Source: Octopus vulgaris (taxonomy: Eukaryota). From it: 64,000 nt of DNA. The notes beneath the pieces were generated by a model, which did no database searches, had not been told where the DNA came from, and worked only from the letters and a program-made list of their open reading frames with translations. Shown here piece by piece: positions 4,091 through 64,000 of the stretch. The first letter of the stretch is position 1, and each line of letters opens with the position of its first letter. The position numbers and the translations under genes were made by a program. Location of the stretch: NCBI GenBank assembly GCA_951406725.2, contig OX597830.1:54312001-54376000 (forward strand). Reading direction: 5' to 3'.

Positions 4091-4993
4091 TTAATTGAGT
4101 TCAGTTTTCTCATGCGACGGGTGATCTGTAGATTCTTTACATTTCCCTGGCCATAATTTCCGTACACTCTGTCTTATAGTGGCGTCGAAAAGCCATATAA
4201 ACGGCAAAAGCAGGAAGCATACAAAAAAAGTAATCCGATAATTGATGAACATCTGAACGCTAAAAATTGGGAAAATATTCAAAGCAAACAAGTTTCCTTG
4301 AAGACAAAAAATTAAAACGAAAATAAGAACAACGATTAAAGTTCTTAATGGTGATTTCATCATCTCACATTGTTTACCTCTAACGGCAATGTAGATCAGT
4401 ACGCCTATAAACACTAACAATGCTATCATCACAAATACTGAAAATATATTCATGATTGTTGTGAAACTATTCCCTAAGTAAATAAAACAACTAGATGGAT
4501 TTTCTTTTTTGAGCGTCAGAATCACTGCCAGATAAAGTACCCAGAGAAAGGCCCACAAAATCCCTGTCATTGCGTACTGGATAGTTAAAAACTTTTGACT
4601 TTCATATTTGCTTGGAAGAAAATATTTCACGATAAAATCACAGCAAATAGGGAATAAGAAATATTTTGACCCTTCTTCTAGAACATAATGAGTTATCACA
4701 AAAAATGCACAAGTTGAGGTTGGCAAATCTCGGAATCGATAGACATGAATATTCTGAAAATAAATGAACAAGGCAAACAATGCATAGTTCAACATATAGT
4801 TCAGCAATGATAGAGAGCGCGTTTTCCCGTGAGATTTACGATCTAGGAAAATGGCGATCATCAGAAATGCATTGGTCAGGATAACTAGAATGATCGAGAC
4901 ACACATAAATATATTCAACCGCCCGAAGGTATCATCCCCGAAGATTGAAGTGTCAGCGTCATTACTGGCTGTAGTCATTTGTAAATCTTCCAT
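4091..4993 (-). CDS. Orphan 7TM class A GPCR-like receptor, paralogue 1 (300 aa, single coding exon)
   Basis: Intact ORF with seven hydrophobic segments. TM1 Asn (ILTNAFL), TM3 Cys (TCAFF) plus ECL2 Cys (SSCFI), [15 protein letters not shown] in the register of the class A DRY...P..Y region, TM4 Trp, and TM7/helix 8 [19 protein letters not shown]. Four paralogues in the window. Confidence 0.9.
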
Positions 4994-4997
4994 AATT

Positions 4998-5025
4998 CTG
5001 AAATAGACAATAAAAGAAATAAAGT
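4998..5025 (-). promoter_or_regulatory. 3' splice acceptor of 5'-UTR intron, paralogue 1
   Basis: Minus strand reads tttcttttattgtctatttcag|AATT ATG; the motif is conserved in all five paralogues. Confidence 0.75.
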
Positions 5026-11389: not shown

Positions 11390-12250
11390 TTAGCATAATT
11401 TCCGTGCACTTTGTCTTATTGTGGCATCAAGAAGCCACAAAAACGACATCACCAGGAAGCTGACAAAATGAGAGTAATGATAAATGAGGAACGTCTGATC
11501 ATCGAATGAGGGAAAAACTCCCAGTTCAAATAAGTTTTGTTGAAGATAAGAAATGAAAGCCAAAATAACAACAATAATTAATGTTCTTAAAGGCGATTTC
11601 ATCATCTCACATTGTCTACCTTTGATAGCAATATAGATCAACAAGCCTATATACACTAGCATTGTTATCATCATCAATATTGAGAATGTAGCCATGATTG
11701 TTATGAAATTACTATTTATACTAATATTGCATCTCCCCGGACTAAAAACGGAACATGCCAGAAACATTACCAATCCTTTTACCCAGAGAAAGGCCCACAA
11801 AATCCCTGTCACTGCGTACTGGATAATTAAAAACTTCCGATTTCCATATTTGCTTGGTTGAAAGTATTTCACGATAAAATCACAGCAAATAGGGAATAAG
11901 AAATATTTAGACCCTTCATCTAGAACACTATGAGTCATAAATATAAATGCACAAGCTGAAGTTGGGAAATATAGGAATAGCTGGAGATGTATATTCTGAA
12001 AATAAACGAACAAGGTAAACAATGCATAGTTCAACATATAGTTCAGCAATGACAGAGAGCGCGTTTTCCCGTGAGATTTACGATCTAGGAAAATGGCGAT
12101 CATTAGAAATGCATTGGTCAGGATAACTAGAATGATCGAGGCACACAAAATTATATTCGACCGCCCGAATATATTATCTCCGAAGACTGAAAATTTTGGG
12201 GTATAATCGTAGTCGTAGTTATAATCTAGAGTCACTTGTAAATCTTCCAT
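11390..12250 (-). CDS. Orphan 7TM GPCR-like receptor, paralogue 2 (286 aa, C-tail truncated by premature TAA)
   Basis: Closest to paralogue 1, with all seven TMs intact. The stop at 11392-11390 is followed in frame by [18 protein letters not shown] ending at 11333. Confidence 0.85.
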   Translation of the reverse strand: MEDLQVTLDYNYDYDYTPKFSVFGDNIFGRSNIILCASIILVILTNAFLMIAIFLDRKSHGKTRSLSLLNYMLNYALFTLFVYFQNIHLQLFLYFPTSACAFIFMTHSVLDEGSKYFLFPICCDFIVKYFQPSKYGNRKFLIIQYAVTGILWAFLWVKGLVMFLACSVFSPGRCNISINSNFITIMATFSILMMITMLVYIGLLIYIAIKGRQCEMMKSPLRTLIIVVILAFISYLQQNLFELGVFPSFDDQTFLIYHYSHFVSFLVMSFLWLLDATIRQSARKLC

Positions 12251-12283: not shown

Positions 12284-12310
12284 CTGAAATGGAGATAATA
12301 AGATAAATAA
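12284..12310 (-). promoter_or_regulatory. 3' splice acceptor of 5'-UTR intron, paralogue 2
   Basis: tattatctccatttcag| lies 33 nt before the ATG, with an in-frame TGA between. Confidence 0.75.
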
Positions 12311-24993: not shown

Positions 24994-25896
24994 TTAATTT
25001 AGTTCTGTAGTTAATTCAAGAGATGGGGTAGCTACCGTTTTTTTACGTTTCCCTGAACATAATTTCCGAATACTTCGTCTTATAGTGGCATCAAAAAACC
25101 ACAAAAACGGCAAAAGCAAGAAGCCAACAAAATGTACGAGCTTGTAAGTGAAGAATATGTTATAAGTTATTGCCCCCCAAAGTCCAACATAAAATAAAGT
25201 TTTTCCAAGATGTAAAATAACTACCAAAATAACAAAAATTACAAAAGTTATTAATGGTGATTTCATCATCTCACATTCTTTGCCCTTGATAGCAATGTAG
25301 ATCAACAAGCCTATAAACACTAACATTGCAATCGTCAACAGAATTGCGATTACAAATGCGGCAAGCTTGGAATTTATATGTAAATGAACAGAACATCCGT
25401 ATGCACCAGGTTCCGAGAAAGCTAGAATGATTACCAATTCTTTGATCAATACAAAGGCCCAAAATATTCCTATTAATATGAACTGTGTACGTAGAAAACT
25501 TTTATTTTCGTATTTACTCGGTTTAAAATATTTCACAATAAAATCAATGCAAACTGGGAATAAGGAATATTTATGTCCTTCCTTTAGAAAGGCATATGAT
25601 AGAATGATAAACAGACAGCTAGACTGAGATAAATCTCGGGTTACACGAGCATGCACGTTCTGGAAATAATAGAGTAAAGCAAACAGAGCGTAGTTCAACA
25701 TGTAGTTCAATAATGACAAAGTGCGTGTTTTCCCGTGAGATTTTCGATCTAGGAAAATGGCGGCAATAAGAAATACGTTCAACAGGAATATTAGAATGGT
25801 TACAACACGGACAAAGAAATTCAACCATTCATCAGCTTCATATCTGAAGAGTGAAATGTTGGAATCACAGTCAGCTGTCATTTGAATATCTTCCAT
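24994..25896 (-). CDS. Orphan 7TM GPCR-like receptor, paralogue 3 (300 aa)
   Basis: Intact ORF sharing [55 protein letters not shown] and C-terminal TELN. Confidence 0.9.
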   Translation of the reverse strand: MEDIQMTADCDSNISLFRYEADEWLNFFVRVVTILIFLLNVFLIAAIFLDRKSHGKTRTLSLLNYMLNYALFALLYYFQNVHARVTRDLSQSSCLFIILSYAFLKEGHKYSLFPVCIDFIVKYFKPSKYENKSFLRTQFILIGIFWAFVLIKELVIILAFSEPGAYGCSVHLHINSKLAAFVIAILLTIAMLVFIGLLIYIAIKGKECEMMKSPLITFVIFVILVVILHLGKTLFYVGLWGAITYNIFFTYKLVHFVGFLLLPFLWFFDATIRRSIRKLCSGKRKKTVATPSLELTTELN

Positions 25897-25922: not shown

Positions 25923-25950
25923 CTGAAATGGAGACAATAAAGGAGATGAA
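25923..25950 (-). promoter_or_regulatory. 3' splice acceptor of 5'-UTR intron, paralogue 3
   Basis: ttattgtctccatttcag| lies 26 nt before the ATG. Confidence 0.75.
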
Positions 25951-29908: not shown

Positions 29909-30587
29909 TGTATTATTGTAACAATGAGAATAACAAAAATAACGGCAACATCAACAATAAAAACAGACTTATTTTCAAAAATATTTTCAATTTTTTTTTA
30001 TTATATGTCAGAATCATCTGGAAATACAAGCAGTCGAAATATAGTTTCGACATTCCATATAATATTGATAAATGAATTACATGCAAGTAGTATTTTAATG
30101 GTGATCAACCAATCGGCAGCCAGATTTTGTACTGTAGTTGATATTAGTAGATCATAAGGAAGAAAATAATTGAAGAACTGTTAGTTTAAACAAGGAGACG
30201 ATAGCTCGGGTAGCATAAATGAACAATATCTGATTTATGCTTGAAAAGACGTACATCAGCCATTAATGTGTGATTATAATCTTTACATTGATTTAAAGAA
30301 ATTCGAAACAATTAAAAAAAATGTATTGATATTAAAAGTTTTTTGTTTGCAAGGTAGCTCGCTGTCTTAATGATAATAATTCTTTCTTTTACAGGCACAA
30401 TTTTGGGGGAAAGGGAAAGTTGATCACATCGACCCCAGTACTTGACTGGCACTTAATTTATCGACTCCGAAAGGATGAAAGCTCGGTCGACCTCGGAGGA
30501 ACTTGAACTCAGAGCGTAAAGACAGACGAAATACCGCTAAGCATTTCACTCGGTGTGCTAACGATTTTGCCAGTTCATCGCCTTATA

Positions 30588-30622
<35 letters not shown>

Positions 30623-30714
30623 GAAGAAGAAGAAGAAGAAGAAGAAGAAGAAGAAGAAGAAGAAGAAGAAGAAGAAGAAGAAGAAGAAGAAGAAGAAGAA
30701 GAAGAAGGTTGGAC

Positions 30715-33700
30715 AGCATGATGGAAGTGCAGCAACTGTAGTTACAAAGAAGGTGAAATCAATAGCAAAGCAAAATGCGTTTGAGCAAGTGGCTGATAGG
30801 TGGGAACAAAAACCCCTGCACGGTTTGTAGCAAACAAGCTGATGTAGACTAGAAGCGCATCCTCACCGACTACGGAGCTCAGAGCTAATGGCAGAGAGTG
30901 AGGGCTTTATCTTGGCTGCCCAACATCAGAGCTTATTGATCCAGAACTATCAAGCCAATGTGATGAAAAATGATGTAAACTCAAAGTGCCGATTTTGCAA
31001 CGATGAGCTAGAAACAGTGGACCACTATGTCCTGGATGTCAGGCAAACACTCGCGCACGGTAGGCAAGGAGTTTCTGATCAAGCCCCTGAAGGTCGTTGT
31101 CAAGCCTTTGATCAGGACCAGAATCAAAATGAAATGGGAAAAAAGAGGTAAACAAGAATGTGATTGGATGTTAGCTGAAAGGTGACCGAAGTAAAGGAGA
31201 TCTTAGGATACAATGAAAAGAAGATGGGACGAAAAGGGTGTCCTTGAATTTTCTGCCCGATGATTGATAGACTAAGCAAGGGCAATTCGTATAAATGATT
31301 GGCTTGCAGAATTAGAGATTAAAGAAATTCAGAGAAGAATAGAAAAACATAAGCAAGAAGTGTGTGAAACAACTGTAGCAGAAAGTGGTAATGAAGGAGT
31401 AAGAGATAAAAAAAAAGAAAAAGAAAGGAATCACTGTGTGCCTGAGAATCCTGTTGAAGTAAATAGTGAACATGATCAAGCTGGCAGTAAATGCTGCACA
31501 GGACTTGAACAATGAAGTGAAGTGGGTTCTAGAAATGCTGTTAGGTAAAATATGTGGCGCGAACAATGAAATGTCCTCAAATATAAGGTATATTTTTTTT
31601 CTCTTTATTGCCCACAAGGGGCTAAACATAGAGGGGACAAACAAGGACAGACAAAGGGATTGAGTCGATTACATCGACCCCAGTGCGTAACTGGTACTTT
31701 ATTTATCGACCCCGAAGGGATGAAAGGCAAAGTCGACCTCGGCGGAATTTGAACTCAGAACGTAACGACAGACGAAATACGGCTACGCATTTCACCCGGC
31801 GTGCTAACGTTTCTGGCAGCTCGCCGCCTTACGTTTCTGCCAGCTCGCCGCCTTAATATAAGGTATATGGACAGAGGAAAAGTAAGGAGAGCCACAGGCA
31901 AAGTAAATGATGTTTTGAGCTTTGTTAAAAACAAGGAATATCAGTGAAACAAACCAGTTAATCATAGCTGCTACTAATGTTGTAGCTGAGACAATTGTAT
32001 ACAAGCAGAAGAGTGATGAAGAAAAGAAGGGGAATGAAAAGCAAGAATCAAATGGGGGGGGGGGAGAATAGTATGAATAAAGTTGGAAAAAATATGAAAA
32101 GAACCGGGATAATTGAATAGGATAATGAGAACTCAAGAATAAATTAGTAATCAGAAAATTGAATTGTCAATACAGGTTAGAAGAGAAGGAAAGTAAACGG
32201 TACTTGAAGAATTGTCACAAATGGTGACAACTTTAAAGGCCAAATTAAAAAGATATGGTGCTGGATACAAAGATTTTGAACAGAATAGATTGTTTCAAGC
32301 AAATAGAACGCGTCTTTTTGATAATATAGAGAGGAACAACATCAGGAAGGGATTCTTGATGCAGAAGTAAGTAAGGGGTTTTGGGGGAGAATTCTGGAAT
32401 AGGTCAGTGAGACATATAGAAAGCGCAGAGAGGCTAACATAGGTCGGGAGACAACATGCAAATGTACCAAAACAAAAAGACGTCAGAAGTGATCAGCGTT
32501 CAGTGATACTCAAGTAAAAAAAAAAAAAGTAGCGAATTGGAAAGGATCCTACTCGGGTGGTGTATAAGGTTATTGACTGAAGAAATTTATAGTTGAATGA
32601 AAGGATTGCTGCACACCTGGATGAATACCCGAAGTAGGGTCACTCCTTATCTGGATGAGAAGTGGACGAACGTCCTTATGTCTCAAGGAAAGGCATAATA
32701 GCGTATTGAAAGGTAAACTGGTATCAAATTTTCTACCTATAACCTTTTTATCACTTATATGGAAGCTTATGGCCAGTGTAGTGGCGGAAAAGTTATATAA
32801 TCACCTGGAAAGCAACAATCTACTTTCAGGAGAACAAAAAGAATGCAGTAAGGAAAGCAGGGGAAAATGATCATTTAATTGATAAAATGATAACCAGAAA
32901 TTGTAGACACAGATTGGCAGTATTGAGTGTAGCATGGTTGGATTACAGAAAAGCATAGAGCATGGTACCACACAGTTGGATAAGTAAATCAATGAACATG
33001 CTTTGAGTGGAATAAAATATAGAGAAAATAGTAAATGAAAGTATAAAAAATTGAAATACTGAATTGGTAGGAGCAAAACAAAGACTTGGGAAAGCGAACA
33101 TCAGACATGGACTATTTCAAGATGATAGCTTATCTCCATTGCTATTTATATTGGTCAGAAGCGTTAGCGCGCCAGGCGAAATGCTTAGCGGTATTTCGTT
33201 TGTCGTTATGTTCTGAGTTCAAATTCCACCGAGGTCGACTTTGCCTTTCATCCTTTCAGGGTCGATAAATAAAGTACCAGTTTCGCACTGGGGTCGATAT
33301 AATCGACTTAATCCCTTTGTCTTTCCTTGTGTGTCCCCTCTGTGTTTAGCCCCTTGTGGGCAGTAAAGAAATATATTTATATTGGCCATGATACCACTCA
33401 GTTTTATATTATGATGAGTTAAAATAGCTTATGATTTTGGGAAAGGATATGATCAGATAAATCTCCCTTTTATAGATGATATAAAAGCTTTATGTGACAA
33501 ATGAGAAGCAGCTTGAAAGTCTTGTATATATTCTTCGCATTTTCTCAAATAATGTCTATATGGAATTTGGGATTGAAAGTGCACTGTATTGATAATGAAA
33601 CGAGGAAAATTTGAAGAACGACAAGAAATTGAAATTCCAAATGGGCGAACAATGAAAGCAGTTGGTGAAGGACAGTGGTAAAAGTATTTGGGAATAATGG

Positions 33701-33898: not shown

Positions 33899-34822
33899 TT
33901 AATTAAGTTCAATAGTAAACTCATGCGACGGAGGGTCTGTAGGTTTTTTACATTTCCCTGAATATAATTTCCGAATACTTCGTCTTATAGTGACATCAGA
34001 AAGCAATAGAAATGGCACTATTACATATCTTACCATATTTAATAATTGGGGTGCGTAAAAGATAGTACTTTGTCTCACTCCATACAGTGCAACAAACGCA
34101 ACGGTTTCAGCAGAGTATAAGATTATGACGAATATAACAATAGCAATCATAGTTATTAATGAAATTTTCATCGTATCATTTTCTCTACTTTTCACTGCGA
34201 TGTAGATCAGTAGACATACAAATACCAGCATTGTAATAAGATACAAGCTTTCTATGGCTAAATGGATTAAAACGTAAATTAAATATAAAAGTATATAGCA
34301 TTGGTCAGCTCCGTGATCTGAGAAAGCCAGGATCATTAATAATTCTTTAATCCAGATAAAAACCCACAAAACAATTGTGAATATGATCTGGATACGCAGA
34401 AAGCTTTCACTTTCATATTTGCTTGGTTTAAAGTATTTCACAATAAAATCACAGCAAATAGGAAGTATGAAATACAAAGCACCTTCGTTAGTAATGGAAT
34501 ATAGTGTAATGATAAACAAGCAGGTAGACTGAAGTAAATCTCCGAATATATGAGTATGTACGTTGTGGAAATAAAAGAACAAGGCAAAGAGTGTGTAGTT
34601 AAACATATAGTTCAGTAATAAGAAAGCGCGTGTTTTCTCAAAGGCTCCACGATCTAAAAAAATGGCAGTCGTTAACAATGCGCTGAACAGGAATATTACG
34701 ATGGTTGCAACACAGGCAGATACATTCATCCAGATTAATGAAGAGGATTCAGGGAATGAAGCGGGTTCAGGGAATGTAACATTGGACCCATAATAATAAT
34801 AATCCTCTTGATAGCTTTCCAT
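33899..34822 (-). CDS. Orphan 7TM GPCR-like receptor, paralogue 4 (307 aa)
   Basis: Intact ORF with the same family motifs ([29 protein letters not shown]-terminal IELN) and an N-terminal NVT sequon. Confidence 0.9.
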   Translation of the reverse strand: MESYQEDYYYYGSNVTFPEPASFPESSSLIWMNVSACVATIVIFLFSALLTTAIFLDRGAFEKTRAFLLLNYMFNYTLFALFFYFHNVHTHIFGDLLQSTCLFIITLYSITNEGALYFILPICCDFIVKYFKPSKYESESFLRIQIIFTIVLWVFIWIKELLMILAFSDHGADQCYILLYLIYVLIHLAIESLYLITMLVFVCLLIYIAVKSRENDTMKISLITMIAIVIFVIILYSAETVAFVALYGVRQSTIFYAPQLLNMVRYVIVPFLLLSDVTIRRSIRKLYSGKCKKPTDPPSHEFTIELN

Positions 34823-34849
34823 GTTGCATTGGCCAGAACTGCTTCAAAC

Positions 34850-34875
34850 CTGAAATGGAGACAGATTTCAATAAA
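34850..34875 (-). promoter_or_regulatory. 3' splice acceptor of 5'-UTR intron, paralogue 4
   Basis: tctgtctccatttcag| lies 27 nt before the ATG. Confidence 0.75.
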
Positions 34876-47552: not shown

Positions 47553-47854
47553 TTTTATATATGCAATAAAGATTGTAAATAATAAGCATTTATTCAATAT
47601 ATATATATACGTTTTGTCCTTTTAATTCATCTTTTATTTCCTTAAATTATAAAGCACATCATATCTGTCAAAATATAACAAGGCGGTAAATAAACAATAT
47701 CTTCGAAATTTATTTCAATTATATTTGAAAAGTACTGTTTGGATTAAATGGTAGAATATCAAAAGAATTTTTTAAAAAATTCTTGCTTGTGTTTAATATA
47801 TTAATATAATGTTCTCAAATATGTAGATTTACACTACAGAATTCCCACGGGTCC

Positions 47855-47903
<49 letters not shown>

Positions 47904-48131
47904 GACGGTGAGCTGGGATGATCATTAGCACGCCGGGTGAAATGCTTAGCGGCATTTCGTCTGCCACTACGTTCTGAGTTCAAATTCCGCCGAGGTCGAC
48001 TGTGACTTTCATCCTTTCGGGGTCGATAAATTAAGTACTAGTTGAAAACTGCGATCGATGTAATCGACTGTTCCCCACTCCCCAAATTCCAGGCCTTGTG
48101 CCTTTAGTAGAAAGGATTATTATCATCATCA

Positions 48132-48204
<73 letters not shown>

Positions 48205-48205
<1 letters not shown>

Positions 48206-48645
48206 TAGTTTTATTTTTATAGCGTGCTTTCACTTCACTACCGAGCGCAGCTCTGTGTGCCTTGGGTATGTGCTGTGATTTGTTGTGGTGCTCTGATGGT
48301 TATTGTATGGAAAGTGTTCTGCGTAGGATGTGTGCAGTGCCTAGTAGTGCAATTTTCTGTATGTTATATGTGTTTGTAAGTCCTGGTGTTTTTGTTATGT
48401 ATTTGTCTGAATATTTTTTTATCATGCCTAATGCACCTACTATGATAGGAATTGTTTCTGTTTTCAGATTTCACATTCTAGTTACCTCTATTTCCAGGTC
48501 TTTGTATTTTGAGAGTTTCTCCATTTCATTTAGAGACACGTTGTCATCAGCCGGTATTGATACATCAATTAGAAAGCATTTTTTTTCTTCATGATCTCTG
48601 ACAACTATATCTGGTCTGTTGGCCTTAATTTCTCTATCTGTCTGT
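48205..48645 (-). mobile_element. R4/Dong-like RLE 3' fragment
   Basis: Minus strand DREIKANRPDIVV...LIDVSIPADDNV...KYKDLEIE...IPIIVGALG, between (TAA)n tracts. Confidence 0.75.
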
Positions 48646-48648
48646 CTC

Positions 48649-48791
<143 letters not shown>

Positions 48792-49779
48792 AAGGCGGCG
48801 ATCTTGCATAATCGTTAGCGCGCCGGGCGAGATGCATAGCGGTATTTCGTCTGCCGCTATGTTCTGAGTTCAAATTCCACTGAGGACGATTTTGCCTTGT
48901 ATCCTTTCGGGATCGATAAATTAAGTACCATTCAAGCACTGGGGTCGAAGTAATCGAATTCCCCCACCCCCAAATTTCAGGCCTTGTGTCTAAATTTCTA
49001 CTAAAGTAGAAAAGATTATCATTATTATTAAGGCAGCGAGCTCACAAAATCGTAAGTACGCTGGGCAAAATGCTTAGTGGTATTACGTCTGTCTGTAATT
49101 CTTCCGAGGTTTACTTTGAGTCTCATGCTTTCAGGTTTGATAAAATAAGTACCAGTTAAGCACTGTAGTTGATGTAACTGACTTGGACCCTTCCCCAAAA
49201 CTGCTGGCCTTGTGCCAAAATTTTTAACCATTCTTCTTTTTCTTCTTCTTCTTATTACTATTATTTAAGAGTAGAATCGTTAGCACACTGGACAAAATGG
49301 TCCAAGGAATCAGAACTACGAAAAATTGTTCTCGTGGGTATGCCCATATCCTTAGAAAAATATCAACTTGAAAACATCTGATCCTCTTAAAACACTATGA
49401 AAACTGAAATTAAAAATTTAACAGAACCTTAGTTCTCAGATTCTGGCTTCCTTCGCGTACACTATAGTCATAAAGAATACCTATTGTAAAACGTCCAACT
49501 TGCAGTTAATTGGGGTCTCTGGATAAAATTCTGAAAAGCTCGTATACAAAAAAGCAACAGTAATGTAAATAATAATAATCCTTTCTACTGAAGGCACAAG
49601 GCCTGAAATTTTTGGGGAGGGGACTAGTCGATTACATTGATCCTAGAGTTTCAATGGTACTTGAATTATCGATCCCGAAAGGATGAAAGCCAAAGTTGAT
49701 CTCGGAACGTAGCGATGGGCGAAATACCGCTAAGCAATTTTTCCGGCGTGCTAACGATTCAGCCAGCTCGCCGCCTTAC

Positions 49780-49874
<95 letters not shown>

Positions 49875-49989
49875 ATGTAATAAAGACTGAAAATAACAAA
49901 GATTTAATCAATATACATAAGTTTTGTCCATTTAATTTCTCTGAAGATGTATGTAAAATAAAATCCTGGGCTTGGTTTAAAAAGGGACA

Positions 49990-50780
49990 GTTAAAAAAAG
50001 AAACAGAGTTTAATTGTAGCAGCCCAAGATCAAGCGATAAAAGCAAATAATTTCAGAAAAAATATATATGAAGAGAATGTACCTGAAAAATGTATAGCCT
50101 GTGGAATTTGGGACGAGACAGTGGCACACATTGTAGCAGAATGTCCCAAGTTGACACAGGAAGAATATAAGAAATGGAGGCACGACCAGGTTGTAAAAGC
50201 TATACACTAGAAACTGTGCCAGAAATGGGGATTTGAAGCTGGAACCACATGGCACAATCATTGAGTAGAAAGAGTATTGGAGTCGGAGAGATGTAAGTTT
50301 TAGTGGGACTTCCCTGTTCAAACGGACAAGAAATTAGAAAATAATAGACGGACACAACAATAAGATAAGGAAAAGCAAAGATGCTTACTAATCGACCCAT
50401 CATGCCCGTTTGATTCCAGGATTGTAAAGAAAGAGAACAAAAAACAAAACAAAAAAAAAAAAAACAAAAAAATACAATCCCTTAAAATTTGAAATAGGAA
50501 GAATTTCGAGTATGAGAAGTGTAAAGGTTGTGCCTATAATAATTGGTGCGCTGGGAACAGTAAACAAAGATATAGACAAATGGCTGAAAGAGAGTGGAAT
50601 AGAATGCCCGGTAGAGCTCCTACAGAAAGTTTGTCTCTTAGGTAACTCGGGGATCATTAAAAGGGTTCTAAGCACTTGAAAGACTACTGAAAACTTGTGG
50701 ATACCTAAGGTTACAGGTAGTAGTCGCTACCCACATAAATCCTACCAGGAATAAAACTGTACCCGAGTCAAACCAAATAA
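49990..50780 (+). mobile_element. R4/Dong-like 3' fragment (CCHC and RLE)
   Basis: ETVAHIVAECPKL..EEYKKWRHDQV...VVPIIIGALGTV read across frameshifts. Confidence 0.7.
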
Positions 50781-51348
50781 TAATGATTTCAAATTTTGGC
50801 TCGAGGCCAGTAAGTTCGGGAGAGAGGTAAGTCGATTACATTGACCCCCCCCCCCCAGTGTACAACTGGTACTTATTCTTATCAACGCCGTAAGGGTGAA
50901 AGGCAGTCAACCTCGGTGGAACTTGAATTGAGAATGTAAACCTGGACGAAATGCCGCAAAGCATTTCGCGACGACGTACTAACGATACAGCCAGTTCACC
51001 GCTTTAAAATATTAATATTAATAATAATAATTACCATCATCCAAATCTTTAATATTATTATCATCATCATTATTTTGGCAATTGTAATTGTCACTTGCAT
51101 CTAGCTCTTAGTGATGTACATTTTTATTAGTATTATTACAGTAAAAAAAATGCATATGTCATATAGCCCTATATTACAGCTCTATGTGTAATTTATACTT
51201 CGATTAATGTACGATATAAGCTAATTTATAAGCTATACACACAAGAATAATGTTTAATAGTATTATATAAAGCATTGTATAAGCTGATATAATGCATGTA
51301 GATTTGTATGTAAGCAGATATAAAACATGTTTACATTACTTTATGTGA

Positions 51349-52236
51349 TTAGTTTAGTTTAGTTAACTCATTCGGTGAGAAGTCATCAGAACTTTGACAT
51401 TTTCTTGAACATAGTGTTCGAATACTTTGTTTTATAGTGGGATCAGAAAGCCACAAAAACGGTACCACTATAAATTTTATGAGAAATATTAAAAAGGCAC
51501 TGTAAAACAATTTAGCCATTAACCCTCCATACATTACAGCAAACAAAATGTTGTGAATAGCGTATAGTATCATCGTGACGAGAACAACAGCGATTATTGT
51601 TCTTAATGGTACAATTGTATCATCATTCCCTCTATTATTCACTGAAATGTTGATCAACATACCAAGATATACTAGTAATACTATAACATACAAAATTACT
51701 ATGGCAAAATGGAAATAGAGGGCACTTGCATCTAAGTCTATCTGACATGGATTGAGTTTGTGGGATGTGTATGCTAACATCATTACTAATACTTTTATCC
51801 AGATAAAAACCCACAAAACTACCGTTAGTATGATCTGGGGACACAGAAAACTTTGACTGTCGTGTTTGCTTGGATTAGTGTATTTCACAATAAAATCATA
51901 GCAAATAGGAATTAAGAAATACAGAGCACCGTCTTCAAAAACGGAACATAGTATAAAAATGGCATAGCAGCCAGACGCTTGTAAATCAGTGAATATTTTC
52001 ACATGTGCATAGCGGAAGTAAAATAGAAAGGCAAACAGTGTGTAATTAAACATATAGTTCAATAATAAGAAAGAGCGCGTTTTCTCATAGGCTTTTCGAT
52101 CTAGGAAAATGGCTATCGATAACAGTAGACTGAATACGGTTATTACAATGGCCGCAATACAAACACTTATAGTTATCCAGTTAATTTCAGGAGATGCAGT
52201 GAGAGTAGAATTAGTTTCATTTTTATAGCCTTCCAT
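51349..52236 (-). CDS. Orphan 7TM GPCR-like receptor, paralogue 5 (295 aa)
   Basis: Intact ORF, closest to paralogue 4. CYDFIVKYTNPSKH, PFLWLSDPTIKQSIRTL, C-terminal TKLN, and N-terminal NET/NST sequons. Confidence 0.9.
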   Translation of the reverse strand: MEGYKNETNSTLTASPEINWITISVCIAAIVITVFSLLLSIAIFLDRKAYEKTRSFLLLNYMFNYTLFAFLFYFRYAHVKIFTDLQASGCYAIFILCSVFEDGALYFLIPICYDFIVKYTNPSKHDSQSFLCPQIILTVVLWVFIWIKVLVMMLAYTSHKLNPCQIDLDASALYFHFAIVILYVIVLLVYLGMLINISVNNRGNDDTIVPLRTIIAVVLVTMILYAIHNILFAVMYGGLMAKLFYSAFLIFLIKFIVVPFLWLSDPTIKQSIRTLCSRKCQSSDDFSPNELTKLN

Positions 52237-52263
52237 CTTGCATTAACCAGAACTGTTTCAAAC

Positions 52264-52290
52264 CTGAAACGGAAATAGATTTCAATAAAA
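52264..52290 (-). promoter_or_regulatory. 3' splice acceptor of 5'-UTR intron, paralogue 5
   Basis: tctatttccgtttcag| lies 27 nt before the ATG. Confidence 0.75.
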
Positions 52291-56935: not shown

Positions 56936-57253
56936 GAACGATGTTTCATGCATGAGAGGAATATTTCAGTTTCCTGAAATGACTTACGTTAAAAGACAAT
57001 TTCGGTTCTTTTTAATTTTCTTCTTTTACCTTCTTTCTTTCTTTCTTTCTTTTCTTTTTTTTTCTTTAACGGTTTCTTAAACACTGTTTTAACGAAGATC
57101 TCAGATGCAACCCTTCCGCGCAGAGAGATTGACAATGTACGTCTACAAAGTTTGCTGTTCGCTGCTGAACTGATGTTCGCTATTCGGAGCTTCTGTTCGT
57201 TATTATTATTATTATTATTGTCGCTCGGTTTCTTGAAGGGAAAGGCGAAGAGC

Positions 57254-59149: not shown

Positions 59150-60660
59150 CGAGGTAATTATAGCAACTTTTAAAAATGCTTGCTTATGGCCCAGGTTAGT
59201 AGAAAATGACAGTGAGTTTGAAAACTCTAAGGAAGAACATTTAGAATGCCGTCATAACTTAGAGTAATATTCGCAATTATTTGTGCCTTTTGTAATCCTC
59301 ATAATGTTATTCACCTTTGGAACTTTTTGAAGAATAAATGATTGAAGATTTTTTTTAGGTAGAGGTTAGGAAAGAGAAGATGCCGAAAACTCCGCTCTTC
59401 ATCTCTTAAATAAAGTATAAATATATGGGAAACTACCACCTGTATCATCTCTTGTGAAAGGTAGAAGAGTCCAGTTTGCTGGACATTGTTGTTGAGCTGA
59501 AAACGAGGTAATTTCTACTCTTCTCCTCTGGAAGTCATCTGCTCGCGATGCCAGAGGGCGCACACCCTCCTACCTTGATATAATCTCCAGGGATACAGGC
59601 ATCCAGCAACAGGACCTCCGTAATGCTATGATGGACCGTGAAGTCTGGCGTAACATAGTAAATTCCATTTTCTCTACCACGGTCGAACAATGATGATGAT
59701 GATGAAATAAAGTTTTAATTGAAAACGAGACAGAATGTCAGAGAATAGGACTATCGCAACGTCAAGGAGAATGTAGGGATATAAATGAACAGGAACTTCA
59801 AGTATATTCTGTTAACTTATATAATCTGAATAAGGAACAAAGACTAATGGCTGATGTGGTAATATCTGCAGTTGCAAAGAAGAGAAAGGGAGAAATTCCA
59901 GAATGTAGTTGTTTTCATATCGATGTTCCTGGATGATGCTATAAAACTTTCTAAACATTATCATCTCTCATCTTAGGAACAACAATTTTAATACATAAGT
60001 GCTAGTAAATTATTGTTAGGTGGTAAAACTTCACATACTTTATGTAAATTACCAGTATCCTTAAGTGATATAAGCATTTGTAATATATCACCTGCATCTG
60101 AGCAAGTTCATTTCTTAAGAGATCAAGATTTAATTCACATTGATGAAGCATCTATGATACTAACATTTGCACATTCATGCCGTTCGTAGATGCCTTCAAA
60201 ATTACTAGTATCAATAGCATTTTTGGAGGAAAGATCATCTTATTGTGAGGGGATTATAGACAAGTGTTACCTATTTTTCCACTAGTAACAAAATATGACA
60301 TCGTAGTTGGATTGAAGGCTTGCGAGTCGGTGGGACTTTGGCGGGTAGGTGAGCATTGATACCTCGAGTTAAACTGATACCCAGCGAATCAGATTTACTT
60401 TTTATATTACAAAGGACTCAGTTTCCCATTAGATTATCTTATTTAATGACAATTAATAAAGCACGAGATGTAATATTCAATAGGATAGGGTTTTACATAC
60501 CCCAACCAGTACTTAGTCAGGGATAGTTATATATTGTATTTTTCAGGGCCAGGAAACTAAATGATATTGTTCTTAAAGTAGTAAATACCATTAGGAAAGG
60601 AAAACAAAAGAGGAAAAACAATCATAAAAAACACTGTAGATCAGGAAGTATTAAATTAAT
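59150..60660 (+). mobile_element. Helitron PIF1-helicase remnant
   Basis: Degenerate LNKEQR, LLLGGKTSH..CKLP, IDEASM, FGGKIILL.GDYRQVLP, RTQFPL and MTINKA read across frameshifts. Confidence 0.7.
59417..59704 (+). mobile_element. 5'-truncated RTE LINE inserted into the Helitron remnant
   Basis: RRVQFAGHC...LLLW...AMMDREVWR with a (tga)n tail. TSD AAATAAAGT at 59408-59416 and 59705-59713. Confidence 0.8.
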
Positions 60661-61844
60661 GATATCATGATAATGAAAGGCGGCGAGCTGGCAGAAACGC
60701 TAGCGCGCCGGGCGAAATGCGTAGCCATATTTCGTCTGCCGCTATATTCTGAGTTCAAATTCCGCCGAGGTCGACTTTGCCTTTCATCCTTTCATGGTCG
60801 ATAAATTAAGTACCTGTTACGCACTTGGGTCGATATAATCGACTTAATCCGTTTGTCTGTCCTTGTTTGTCCCCTCTGTGTGTGGCCCCTTGTGGCCCCT
60901 TGTGGGTAGTAAAGAATTAGATATTATGATAATGATAATTAATGGTTTCATGGTTTAAATGATACAATGACGTAATAATTATACTGGTATCTCAAACAAA
61001 AAAAAATAATTGCAATGTTATTAATTATTGATTTTTATTGATTTCTTTTGTAAATCATATTCATTATATAAATTGCATGTCAATGTTTATTTAAATGTAA
61101 ATAAATTCACGTGTATTTTAATAAATAATTACTTTTCCCTATCTCTCCAACCCTGAGTGATAACTTGCTTAATTTAAATAAATTACTTAAATTACATAAT
61201 GCGTGAATGCACAAATAAATGTAAAAGTTATTTATTGCCTTAGTTGCCTATGGTTGTAGAACTAGCATGGGTTCAGTTACAGCATACTGAAACAAAGTAA
61301 TTATATAGAAAATGTAAACATGTGCGAATTAGACAACAGTGACCATTGAGAACCTATATATTAATACGCCGTGGTTGAATGCGTTACGATATCGAGTGAT
61401 TAGTTGGAGGGGGGGGGTGAAGTGCGAGAGAAAAAAAGGAAGAGTGAGAAGTGTTAACAACATGACATAGAAAAGGAATAACAGTTATTACATTAAGACC
61501 GAATGTGTGACGCTGTCATGTGGTTAGTTTAAAAAAGGAGAGAGTAGAGTGTTATCGCTAAGAGGCAAATTACGTTTTGTGGTTAGTTGCGATTACGTTT
61601 TGTGGTTAGTTGAAGATAGAGGTCGAAAGTTGAAAGAGAGAGAGAGAGAGAGAGAGATATAAACATGTAAAGTGCAAAGGCATCAACTATGCAAGAGGCA
61701 TAGAAAGATAGGGAGGGGCAAAGAGAGTGTTGACAGAAATGAATGTGGGAGTGGAAATCTGTTGCATGATTTTAAACGAAGCACAGCAAAATATTGTGAC
61801 AGACAGTAAAAATAAAAGTCTAGTTGCTATTACAGGTTTTAATA

Positions 61845-62230
61845 TCAGCCGGTGGACCAATTTGAAAGGGTTAAAGACTGACATTTTCCTTTTTGGCCAA
61901 GCCCTCATCAACTTCTTCAAGTTTCCCTTGAAAAGGAAAATGAAGGAGGGAAGTGCTGCCTCCCAGCAAATTTGTTAAAAGATGAGTGAATGTAGCAGGA
62001 ATAGCCCGAATGAACGGGTCTGCTCTAAGCATGCGCCTCTAGATCGAGGAGTGGGCACTTTCCCTAATTGTTAGGGAGATCGTGGTTTTTGTGGGGTTTT
62101 CTCAAGCAGCCCTTAGAAGTCTCTTTCTTTTGAGGATTTAATTTATTAGAATTTATATTGTTATTTTTTGTTTACAAGTTTCAGTCGCACCCTATTCCCC
62201 CAGTCCCCAATCTTTTTATGTGAAGCTCCA
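61845..62230 (+). mobile_element. L1/Tx1-like 3' fragment
   Basis: RWTNLKGLK...FGQALINFFKF; homologous to 43443-43990. Confidence 0.55.
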
Positions 62231-62231
62231 G

Positions 62232-62304
<73 letters not shown>

Positions 62305-62464
62305 CATTATTATAGTGAGTTTTTCTTCTTTCTTCTGTCTGGGACTAAGAAGTTTATTTGATACATTGATAGACCATTAACATAAACACACCAGATTATT
62401 CATTTACAAAATCAAGTTATGTGAGAAAAATAAAAGGCAGAGAAAAAGAAAAAAGGAAAAAGGA

Positions 62465-62600
62465 AAACAAAGACCACATGGATTGTAATCGTTCTCACAG
62501 CATATATGCTCTTCTCAATACGTCTGACGTACCAGTTAAAATAATCTTTTGTACTTCTTGCACGGCTGGTAAGCCAAGGATCATTCTCAAATAATTTTCA
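62465..62600 (-). mobile_element. R4/Dong-like extreme 3' fragment
   Basis: ENYLRMILGLPAVQEVQKIILTGTSDVLRRA is nearly the same as the end of ORF 21834-22133. Confidence 0.75.
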
Positions 62601-62601
62601 A

Positions 62602-62693
<92 letters not shown>

Positions 62694-63281
62694 GTTAGTA
62701 TTATTTTTATTGTTGTTGTTGTTGTTGTCGGCGAGTGAAAACATGTTTCTTTTAGCTCCGGACGGCACAAAACTGCACGTCGTCGTAGAGGGCGGAAGGC
62801 CGATGTGTTACCTCTGTGGTGACAAAAACCACCTCTAGGTCTCTTGTCCCAAACAGAGAAAAAAAAAGGAGCGGCCAGCACTGCTACTAACACCAATGTT
62901 AGTGTCACCTTCAGCGCTGCAACAACAGCAGCAGCAGCAGGTGCAGCAGCAGCAAATACACCAAAGGCAGCACTAGCGCTATCACCACCACCACCACCAC
63001 CACCACCTGCAACAGCAACAGCGATGTTGCCTCCAGCAGTCACTGAGGCACAAACAACATCAACACCACCAACAGCAGAATCGTAAGCACACCGGGTAAA
63101 ATGCTTACCGTCATTTCGACCATCTTTATGTTCTGAACCGAGGCCGACTTTGTTTTCATCCTTTCGGAGTCGATGAAATAAGTACCAGTTACGCACTGGG
63201 ATCGACGTAATCGCTTAGCTCCCTCCCACAAAATTTCAGATCTTGTGCCTATAATAGTAAGGATTATTATAATTATTTTGA

Positions 63282-63778
63282 AGGCGGCGATCTAGCAGAA
63301 TCGTTAGCACGCCGGGAGAAATGCTTAGCGGTATTTCGTCTGCCGCTACGTTCTGAGTTCAAATTCCGCCGAGGTCGACTTTGCCTTTCATCTTTTCGGG
63401 GTCGATTAAATAAGTACCAGTTACGCACTGGGGTAGATGTAATCGACTTAATCCGTTTGTCTGTCCTTGTTTGTCCCCTCTGTGTTTAGCCCTTGTGGGT
63501 AGTAAAGAAATAGGTATTTCGTCTGCCGTTACGTTCTGAGCTCAAATTCCGCCGAGGTCTACTTTGCCTTTCATCCTTTCGGGGTCGATAAATTAAGTAC
63601 CAGTTGCGCACTGGGGTCGATATAATCGACTTAATCCGTTTGTCTGTCCTTGTTTGTACCCTCTGTGTGTAGCCCCTTGTGGGCAGTAAAGAAATAGGTA
63701 TTTTGTCTGCCGCTACGTTCTGAGTTCAAATTTCGCCGAGCTCGACTTGTTTCTTTCGGGTTAGATAAATTAAGTACC
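63282..63778 (+). mobile_element. Head-to-tail multimer of SINE family C
   Basis: One head followed by ~183-bp units starting gtattt(c/t)gtctgccg at 63331, 63514 and 63698. Confidence 0.8.
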
Positions 63779-64000
63779 TTGTGCCTTTAGTTGATACTCT
63801 GAACAGAAACACAGGCGAAGGCGAAATTAATTTCTCACCAAAGAGAAATAAAATTTCCCCTTGTTGCTACGACGACGACAGTAACAAGTGCAAGAATACC
63901 AGCAAAAACTATAATGACGGCGGCGACGACGACAGCAACAATGTGAACAGCGGCAGCACCACCACTGCCTACAACAACACCATGGACACCGTCGGAGGCA

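Follow-up and report, generated by a model that had tools for sequence, protein, structure and literature searches.

A tandem array of divergent receptors

Can a receptor with a rhodopsin-type fold still signal once the polar residues of the class A activation relay have been replaced, and through which partner? This question is raised by a 64-kb stretch of Octopus vulgaris DNA (contig OX597830.1, positions 54,312,001 to 54,376,000; 64,000 nt, hereafter the window), whose minus strand carries five receptor ORFs in tandem, each a single coding exon of 286-307 aa. By translation, these are copy 1 (4091..4993; P0001, 300 aa, an intact 7TM frame), copy 2 (11390..12250; P0002, 286 aa), copy 3 (24994..25896; P0003, 300 aa), copy 4 (33899..34822; P0004, 307 aa) and copy 5 (51349..52236; P0005, 295 aa). 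A tblastn search of the window with 16 family proteins as queries returned these five copies and no sixth. The window DNA is AT-rich, microsatellite-rich and animal, and none of its 14 other ORFs of 100-220 aa had a credible Pfam match. About 12 copies of a dispersed repeat of 150-300 nt, probably a SINE, lie at 30370-33380, 47850-51030 and 60650-63780.

Copy 1 is 96.7% identical to isoform X2 of Octopus sinensis LOC115220941, copy 2 is 98.6% identical to its RefSeq orthologue in that species, and copies 4 and 5 are 99.3% and 99.7% identical to isoforms X1 and X3 of O. sinensis LOC115220942. In copy 2, a stop codon (11390-11392, minus strand) right behind helix 8 cuts off the last 18 codons; the 18 in-frame codons beyond it match the tail kept by the O. 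sinensis orthologue, and the stop is an allele or an assembly error.

Predicted fold and class assignment

The preliminary description of this locus had treated the products as class A GPCRs, and structure prediction bears this out, AlphaFold giving a 7TM bundle plus helix 8 that finds its best matches among class A GPCRs. Both models, that of copy 1 (pLDDT 79.4, pTM 0.78) and that of the deepest relative, P0031 (pLDDT 81.0, pTM 0.78), show seven helices followed by helix 8, and in both ICL3 is very short, with ~4 residues separating helix TM5 from helix TM6. The top VIA match of copy 1 reached Z 21.8 (rmsd 3.7, 261 aligned) and that of P0031 Z 23.8 (rmsd 2.7, 257 aligned). Class A receptors predominate, at 8-21% identity, among the Foldseek and VIA matches listed (best 50 each), where the Z values are so much tied that no class A subfamily stands out as nearest; one class B chain stands at rank 40 among those listed for copy 1. 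The ESM Atlas neighbours are divergent rhodopsin-like GPCR clusters (0.94-0.96).

Profile searches gave a different picture. Neither Pfam 7tm_1 nor any other GPCR profile matched any of the 20 aligned members at E up to 1, five further members had no Pfam GPCR match at E 0.01, and a single-sequence search against PDB sequences returned nothing. Weak Pfam transmembrane matches (TgpA_N, E 1e-4; FixQ; plectrovirus TM) were rejected as composition. This silence of the 7tm profile, together with an E of just 0.009 for the closest solved GPCR by sequence, would suit a 7TM protein with no kinship to class A GPCRs, for which residue numbering would be meaningless. We consider that extremely improbable: the class A matches of the fold searches largely refute it, the language-model neighbours are rhodopsin-like clusters, and Cys3.25, acidic 3.49, Pro34.50, Trp4.50, the ECL2 Cys, Pro7.50 and helix 8 stand at class A spacing. 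The family is thus a divergent one with a predicted rhodopsin-type fold (7TM and helix 8).

Replacement of the activation motifs

All of the motifs first noticed by eye were recovered by translating and aligning the ORFs. DFIVKY replaces DRY in 5/5 copies (copy 1, 4622..4639, minus strand; positions 3.49-3.54 by alignment register, Phe120 being 3.50). TM7 reads LPFIW, MSFLW, LPFLW, VPFLL and VPFLW exactly as claimed, LPFIW of copy 1 (4193..4207, minus strand) corresponding in the same register to 7.49-7.53 with Trp267 at 7.53, and TM2 reads LLNYMxNY in 5/5 copies (LLNYMLNY in copy 1, 4784..4807, minus strand, the final Tyr, residue 70, likely being 2.50 on a weak alignment). As described, copies 4 and 5 have Ser instead of Asn1.50, the TM3-ECL2 Cys pair (Cys95/Cys169), TM4 Trp147 and ICL2 Pro127 are retained in all five copies, and TM6 lacks a CWxP-type Pro, its outer two thirds being Pro-free in all copies and in 25/25 family rows. 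Two details need amending. The charged EG reported inside TM3 is indeed an acidic-Gly pair (3.37 and 3.38 by alignment; copy 1, 4670..4675, minus strand), but copy 5 reads DG, hence E/D-G, with D/E in 24/25 rows; and the span 4130..4720 that was said to cover the motifs misses TM1 and TM2 (4784-4873).

Residue numbers were taken from sequence alignments and counting. This register places no Arg at 3.50. Counting 25 residues on from Cys95 (Cys3.25) gives Phe120, and in HMM alignments to HCAR1 and HCAR2 the stretch that begins at Cys3.25 and extends beyond Trp4.50 is free of gaps, with D-R-Y over D-F-I; these profile matches (E 0.14 and 0.009) are weak as searches and consistent in register. An alignment to alpha-2A (E 0.065) sets NPVIY over xPFLW and its helix 8 over D-x-x-I-R, and a less sure one to 5-HT1D (E 0.64, one gap) gives Asn41 as 1.50, Tyr70 as 2.50 and Gly197 as 5.58.

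Family-wide counts were made on 25 of 38 proteins, with near-duplicates (P0002, P0006, P0007, P0017, P0019, P0026, P0028 and P0034-P0038) and the fragment P0024 excluded and copy 2 represented by its orthologue P0008. Across these rows, position 3.50 is Phe in 17, Leu in three, Val in three, Tyr in one and Ile in one, and is thus always hydrophobic, with no Arg anywhere from 3.48 to 3.54 in the alignment; 7.53 is Trp in 21 and Leu in four and never Tyr; 5.58 is non-Tyr in 25/25; and 2.50 is Tyr in 25/25, in the register of the weak one-gap alignment. The earlier claim that the replacements are themselves conserved therefore holds to the letter at 2.50, whereas 3.50 and 7.53 keep their character and not their identity. 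Only the acidic 3.49 and Pro7.50 persist out of D/E-R-Y, NPxxY, CWxP and Asp2.50, and Pro5.50 and Asn7.49 are likewise absent.

Other positions are retained. The class A anchors Cys3.25 and the ECL2 Cys occur in all 25 rows, Trp4.50 in 24, the ICL2 Pro in 22 and Pro7.50 in 21. On the inner face, D/E3.49, Ile3.51, K/Q3.53 and Ser8.53 are kept in all 25, Asp8.47 in 24 and Pro34.50 in 22. ICL1 carries D-R-x4-K, its Asp invariant and its Arg and Lys at least 90% conserved, and helix 8 (copy 1, 4154..4186, minus strand, from the AlphaFold model and alignment) carries D-x-x-I-R-x-S, with the Ser in 25/25. Altogether ten columns are invariant over the 25 rows, down to 20% identity. The otherwise variable, low-confidence tail ends in E-L-T in 20/25 rows, down to ~22% identity, and in E-K-T in copy 1 (4094..4114, minus strand, by alignment). 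Position 34.51, where a bulky hydrophobe usually contacts G-alpha, is polar (S14, N2, K2, R1, E1 over 20 rows), and the family alignment has no conserved basic residue at the cytoplasmic start of TM6. TM3 also shows a Pro at 3.45 (23/25 rows) and a Cys at 3.47 (25/25), residues 115 and 117 of P0001, neither of them usual in class A receptors. Just ahead of them, at residue 112, TM3 is interrupted in the model of copy 1; in that of P0031, which has no Pro3.45, it is unbroken.

The 25-row pattern indicates that the polar relay was lost long ago and throughout the family, hydrophobicity being the conserved property at 3.50. The five copies are paralogues and hence record one event of motif loss, not five.

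Family members and selection

A profile built from 16 close members yielded 7 matches among 1.84 billion representatives (E up to 0.001), word-based protein searches yielded 12, 16 and 4 proteins, and a metagenome scan for family loci gave 100 pattern matches, none of them confirmed. All members that carry a species name are from O. sinensis, O. bimaculoides or Argonauta hians; the remainder are Logan or ENA records, which include the deepest branch (P0025 and P0031), ~22% identical to the Octopus copies. The family is named so far in octopods only. In a tree of 30 rows, the window copies pair with their O. sinensis orthologues and several duplications predate the sinensis-bimaculoides split, with one long-branch join unsure.

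The motif changes had been attributed to selection and not to decay, and the open frames, the O. sinensis orthologues (96.7-99.7%) and a core dN/dS below 1 in 10/10 paralogue pairs agree with this. Over 262 core codons of the five paralogues, dN/dS (all values reported are NG86) was 0.44-0.78 in 10/10 pairs, with 0.28-0.56 in the inner half and 0.52-1.11 in the outer half, and IQ-TREE tree lengths were 2.68 and 6.16, respectively. Mean column entropy over 20 rows was 1.25 bits inside vs 2.06 outside (nominal P 1.5e-15, rows and columns not being independent), and positions at least 90% conserved numbered 26/130 inside and 9/132 outside; TM4 showed no such contrast (1.60 vs 1.53). The dS was also lower in the inner half in 9/10 pairs and copies 1 and 2 have five identical runs of 32-50 nt in common, so the difference between the two halves may be exaggerated by gene conversion or by the way of counting. 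O. bimaculoides P0015 and P0016 are identical from TM2 to the start of TM4, where their O. sinensis orthologues differ, likely by gene conversion.

The opposing view, that these are duplicates in decay and that neutral drift explains the motif changes, could draw on the premature stop of copy 2, 18 codons from the end, and on an outer-half dN/dS of ~1.1 in the two closest pairs. It is nonetheless very improbable and already largely refuted: all five copies have full 7TM frames, intact orthologues exist in O. sinensis, O. bimaculoides and A. hians, the ten invariant columns hold across 25 rows down to 20% identity, and inner-half dN/dS is at most 0.56. A conserved inside and a variable outside would be expected of diversifying ligand pockets served by one cytoplasmic partner, and the sequences suggest that the paralogues likely bind different extracellular ligands.

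Candidate ligands and signalling partners

N-termini are acidic in every row (net charge -1 to -6, 25/25), have a Tyr no more than two residues away from D/E in 22/25 rows and contain 12.5% Tyr vs 5.0% elsewhere. The N-terminus of copy 1 is without Tyr, and the Tyr richness is partly short-repeat DNA, such as a TAT run in copy 4. Those of copies 2 and 4 (12180-12250 and 34780-34822) and of most relatives are acidic, Tyr-rich and sulfation-site-like; we take such N-termini to resemble the tyrosine-sulfation sites of chemokine and anaphylatoxin receptors. In our analysis, these features point to putative basic peptide or protein ligands.

The preliminary description had proposed either non-canonical coupling or G-protein-independent function. 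The former is reasonable because the fold is of rhodopsin type, 3.50 is Phe and the changes reflect selection rather than decay; the latter is not deducible, since receptors lacking Arg3.50 stand on both sides. According to the accessible parts of the respective sources, TAS2Rs, which are without DRY, CWxP and NPxxY, couple, and their Tyr3.50 contacts the G protein (PMC11646861); DP1 has an ECW motif and contacts Gs through Glu3.49 and TM1/ICL1 (PMC12146711); EHV2-ORF74 signals via Gi with a DTW motif (PMC3414077); and C5aR2, with Leu3.50, Phe7.53 and short TM5/TM6/ICL3, shows no G-protein activation, nor does ACKR1, another receptor without Arg3.50, couple (bioRxiv 10.1101/2025.11.01.685996). 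Motif loss therefore predicts uncoupling in neither direction.

Our preferred reading, which we hold with about even confidence, is that the family putatively signals via heterotrimeric G protein through non-standard contacts in place of Arg3.50. The polar relay (Asp2.50, Arg3.50, Tyr5.58, Tyr7.53 and CWxP) would have been exchanged in a single event that preceded the radiation of the family; with Tyr at 2.50, a hydrophobic residue at 3.50, a residue other than Tyr at 5.58 and Trp or Leu at 7.53 in its place, the sodium site and the ionic lock would be absent. The transducer would then be met via the retained acidic 3.49, Lys/Gln3.53, ICL1 D-R-x4-K, ICL2 P-x-x-Y-E and helix 8, with DP1 (via Glu3.49 and ICL1) and TAS2Rs (via an aromatic 3.50) as models for such contact. 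Ligands would be basic peptides or proteins in preference to volatile-type odorants, given the acidic Tyr-rich N-terminus, and the receptors may be switched off through the conserved E-L-T tail, as a kinase/arrestin or trafficking site. In our analysis, the retained acidic 3.49, K/Q3.53, ICL1, ICL2 and helix 8 fit such a DP1/TAS2R-like route, and the very short ICL3, polar 34.51, lack of a conserved basic TM6 end and E-L-T tail fit a C5aR2-like one. Against the preferred reading, a hydrophobic 3.50 with a non-Tyr 7.53 and a very short ICL3 is the combination found in C5aR2, which is uncoupled.

Signalling like that of C5aR2 would mean peptide or protein ligands and signalling or internalisation through GRK and arrestin only, with no G protein. 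This is possible, if on the doubtful side. A hydrophobic 3.50, a non-Tyr 7.53 and a non-Tyr 5.58, each in 25/25 rows, agree with it, as do the very short ICL3 of both models, the polar 34.51, the acidic Tyr-rich N-termini and the Thr-bearing acidic tail motif E-L-T, present in 20/25 rows and down to ~22% identity; the deepest branch even has D-L at 3.49-3.50, like C5aR2. However, the 19 full-length rows end in short tails that offer 2-7 Ser/Thr each, copy 2 has lost its tail entirely, motif loss fails to predict uncoupling either way, and the fold search singles out neither C5aR2 nor the ACKRs, ACKR3 standing at rank 34 and widely tied. Taken more broadly, G-independent signalling by the products, through arrestin or another non-G partner meeting the ICL1/helix 8 face and the E-L-T tail, is quite possible, though we would not call it probable.

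Distinctly unlikely, in our judgement, is that the products are non-signalling binders, whether ACKR1-like scavengers or transporters or heteromerising modulators of other receptors. Every polar relay residue is gone together, ACKR1 couples neither G protein nor arrestin (bioRxiv 10.1101/2025.11.01.685996), and the predicted TM3 break of copy 1 at residue 112, by Pro3.45 (23/25), recalls the TM3 kink of ACKR1. In contrast, the conserved half is the inner face, which argues for a common cytoplasmic partner, and TM3 is continuous in the model of the deepest relative, which has no Pro3.45.

A possible shared first exon

Upstream of its start codon, each of the five copies carries a conserved pyrimidine tract and TTTCAG, at a distance of 4-33 nt. 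The predicted acceptors lie on the minus strand at 4998..5003 in copy 1 (4 nt before the ATG), 12284..12289 in copy 2 (33 nt), 25923..25928 in copy 3 (26 nt), 34850..34855 in copy 4 (27 nt) and 52264..52269 in copy 5 (27 nt). With an acceptor just before each ATG, each copy would need an upstream untranslated exon. Copies 4 and 5 also carry an out-of-frame ATG between acceptor and start codon (34823-34850 and 52237-52264, minus strand).

Existing annotation groups whole receptors into single genes. RefSeq isoforms X1-X4 of O. bimaculoides LOC106869328 are four whole receptors, 33-69% identical, with a fifth, P0012, under an older annotation; isoforms X1-X3 of O. sinensis LOC115220942 are three receptors (49-62% identical) and X1-X2 of LOC115220941 are two (67% identical). 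These 'isoforms', known to us as RefSeq names and not as exon models, differ at both N- and C-termini. Misaligned spliced reads can create false chimeric models between close paralogues, as noted in the accessible part of PMC7055050; an identity of 33% between isoforms makes coding-exon mis-mapping unlikely as the cause. We therefore lean, on annotation and sequence, slightly towards the array sharing one untranslated first exon. Against this, the O. sinensis annotation divides the array into several genes.

A duplicated first exon was not recognised in the five spacers, a weak negative, other shared stretches there being microsatellites or dispersed repeats; same-strand homology between paralogues stops within ~200-420 nt upstream of the ATG, and a sequencing-run search listed no RNA sequencing runs carrying copy 4. 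The window contains no orthologue of LOC115220942 X2, and a shared exon may accordingly be located past position 64000. At ~56980-57250 (minus strand), an A-rich stretch past a long CT-rich tract has a consensus-like donor near 56987 and is a candidate untranslated exon.

A shared first exon, if real, would make the array a compact example of splicing used to choose a receptor. In mammalian olfactory receptor genes, an untranslated exon precedes the single coding exon, and at 7 loci in human and 7 in mouse the 5' UTR exon also serves a neighbouring gene (PMC7055050). The octopus layout is similar; sharing is, however, the exception among hundreds of olfactory receptor genes, whereas the octopus annotation puts up to four or five whole receptors of one array in a gene. 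Relative to the clustered protocadherins, the octopus array would be a mirror image, with receptor choice by 3' splice-site choice. That one untranslated first exon is spliced to any of at least seven whole-receptor exons of differing tuning and that the products also signal through arrestin or another non-G route is, as a joint proposition, unlikely.

Relation to earlier surveys

Cephalopod GPCR surveys start from profile searches and have reported strikingly few expanded families; with no GPCR Pfam match, the present family would escape profile-based surveys. The cephalopod expansions of Ritschard et al. 2019 (groups 1-4) were, in the accessible part of the paper, built on Pfam PF00001-3 and PF01534 hits (PMC6408891), and none of five UniProt ids of O. 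bimaculoides members occurs in its three supplementary files, although these contain other A0A0L8 ids 2,080 times. A Lophotrochozoa class A survey (Mol Biol Evol 2025; PMC11886862) used 110 profiles and described putative chemoreceptor lineage-specific expansions; its accessible text reports no conserved group-specific motifs beyond DRY and NPxxY, and RefSeq accession prefixes of members were found nowhere in the one supplement consulted.

In databases, members are uncharacterised or 'GPCR family 1 profile' entries, several O. bimaculoides members bearing the UniRef label 'G-protein coupled receptors family 1 profile domain-containing protein'. We found no publication on family members in a search mostly short of subscription titles, octopus genome papers among them. 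This is likely an overlooked family of working receptors. Joint loss of Asp2.50, Arg3.50, Tyr5.58, CWxP and Tyr7.53 under selection amounts to a natural experiment on the residues that rhodopsin-fold signalling needs.

Comparison with known receptors

With class A GPCRs (PF00001), the octopus family shares the predicted 7TM bundle and helix 8, the TM3-ECL2 Cys pair, acidic 3.49, Pro34.50, Trp4.50, Pro7.50 and the helix 8 pattern; it differs from them in having no Pfam match and in lacking Asp2.50, Arg3.50, Pro5.50, Tyr5.58, CWxP, Asn7.49 and Tyr7.53. The vertebrate orphan GPR160 is also reported to lack Arg3.50, and it was among the matches of none of our searches. TAS2R, C5aR2, ACKR1 and DP1 were all absent from the fold matches listed (best 50 per search).

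C5aR2 resembles the family in having a hydrophobic residue at 3.50, a residue other than Tyr at 7.53 and a short ICL3 (bioRxiv 10.1101/2025.11.01.685996). C5aR2/GPR77 (C5L2) and the atypical chemokine receptors also have an acidic Tyr-rich N-terminus. However, C5aR2 keeps NPxx and is the lone paralogue of a canonical receptor. Unlike the octopus family, ACKR3, which is G-uncoupled with DRY and NPxxY intact (bioRxiv 10.1101/2025.11.01.685996), and GPR182, which retains DRY (PMC10405735), keep Arg3.50 in the accessible parts of these sources.

DP1, in the available part of its source (PMC12146711), combines a non-Arg 3.50 with an acidic 3.49 touching G-alpha and with ICL1 contacts, and in the octopus family acidic 3.49 and ICL1 are conserved; DP1 differs in being a single conserved vertebrate lipid receptor, and we found no sequence link between the two.

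TAS2R receptors were absent from the sequence-search matches listed. Their genes form tandem intronless arrays with variable pockets. In the accessible part of PMC11646861, TAS2Rs share with the octopus receptors the missing DRY, CWxP and NPxxY, an aromatic 3.50 and a Lys three residues on, whereas the octopus family has acidic 3.49, the TM3-ECL2 Cys pair and Pro7.50. The TAS2R motifs FYxxK (TM3) and HSxxL (TM7), as given in the source material available, are absent from it, octopus TM3 reading D-F-I-V-K and TM7 x-P-F-L-W. We read the likeness to TAS2Rs as probable analogy rather than kinship. Receptors without DRY are already well documented, and it is as a family that the octopus receptors are new.
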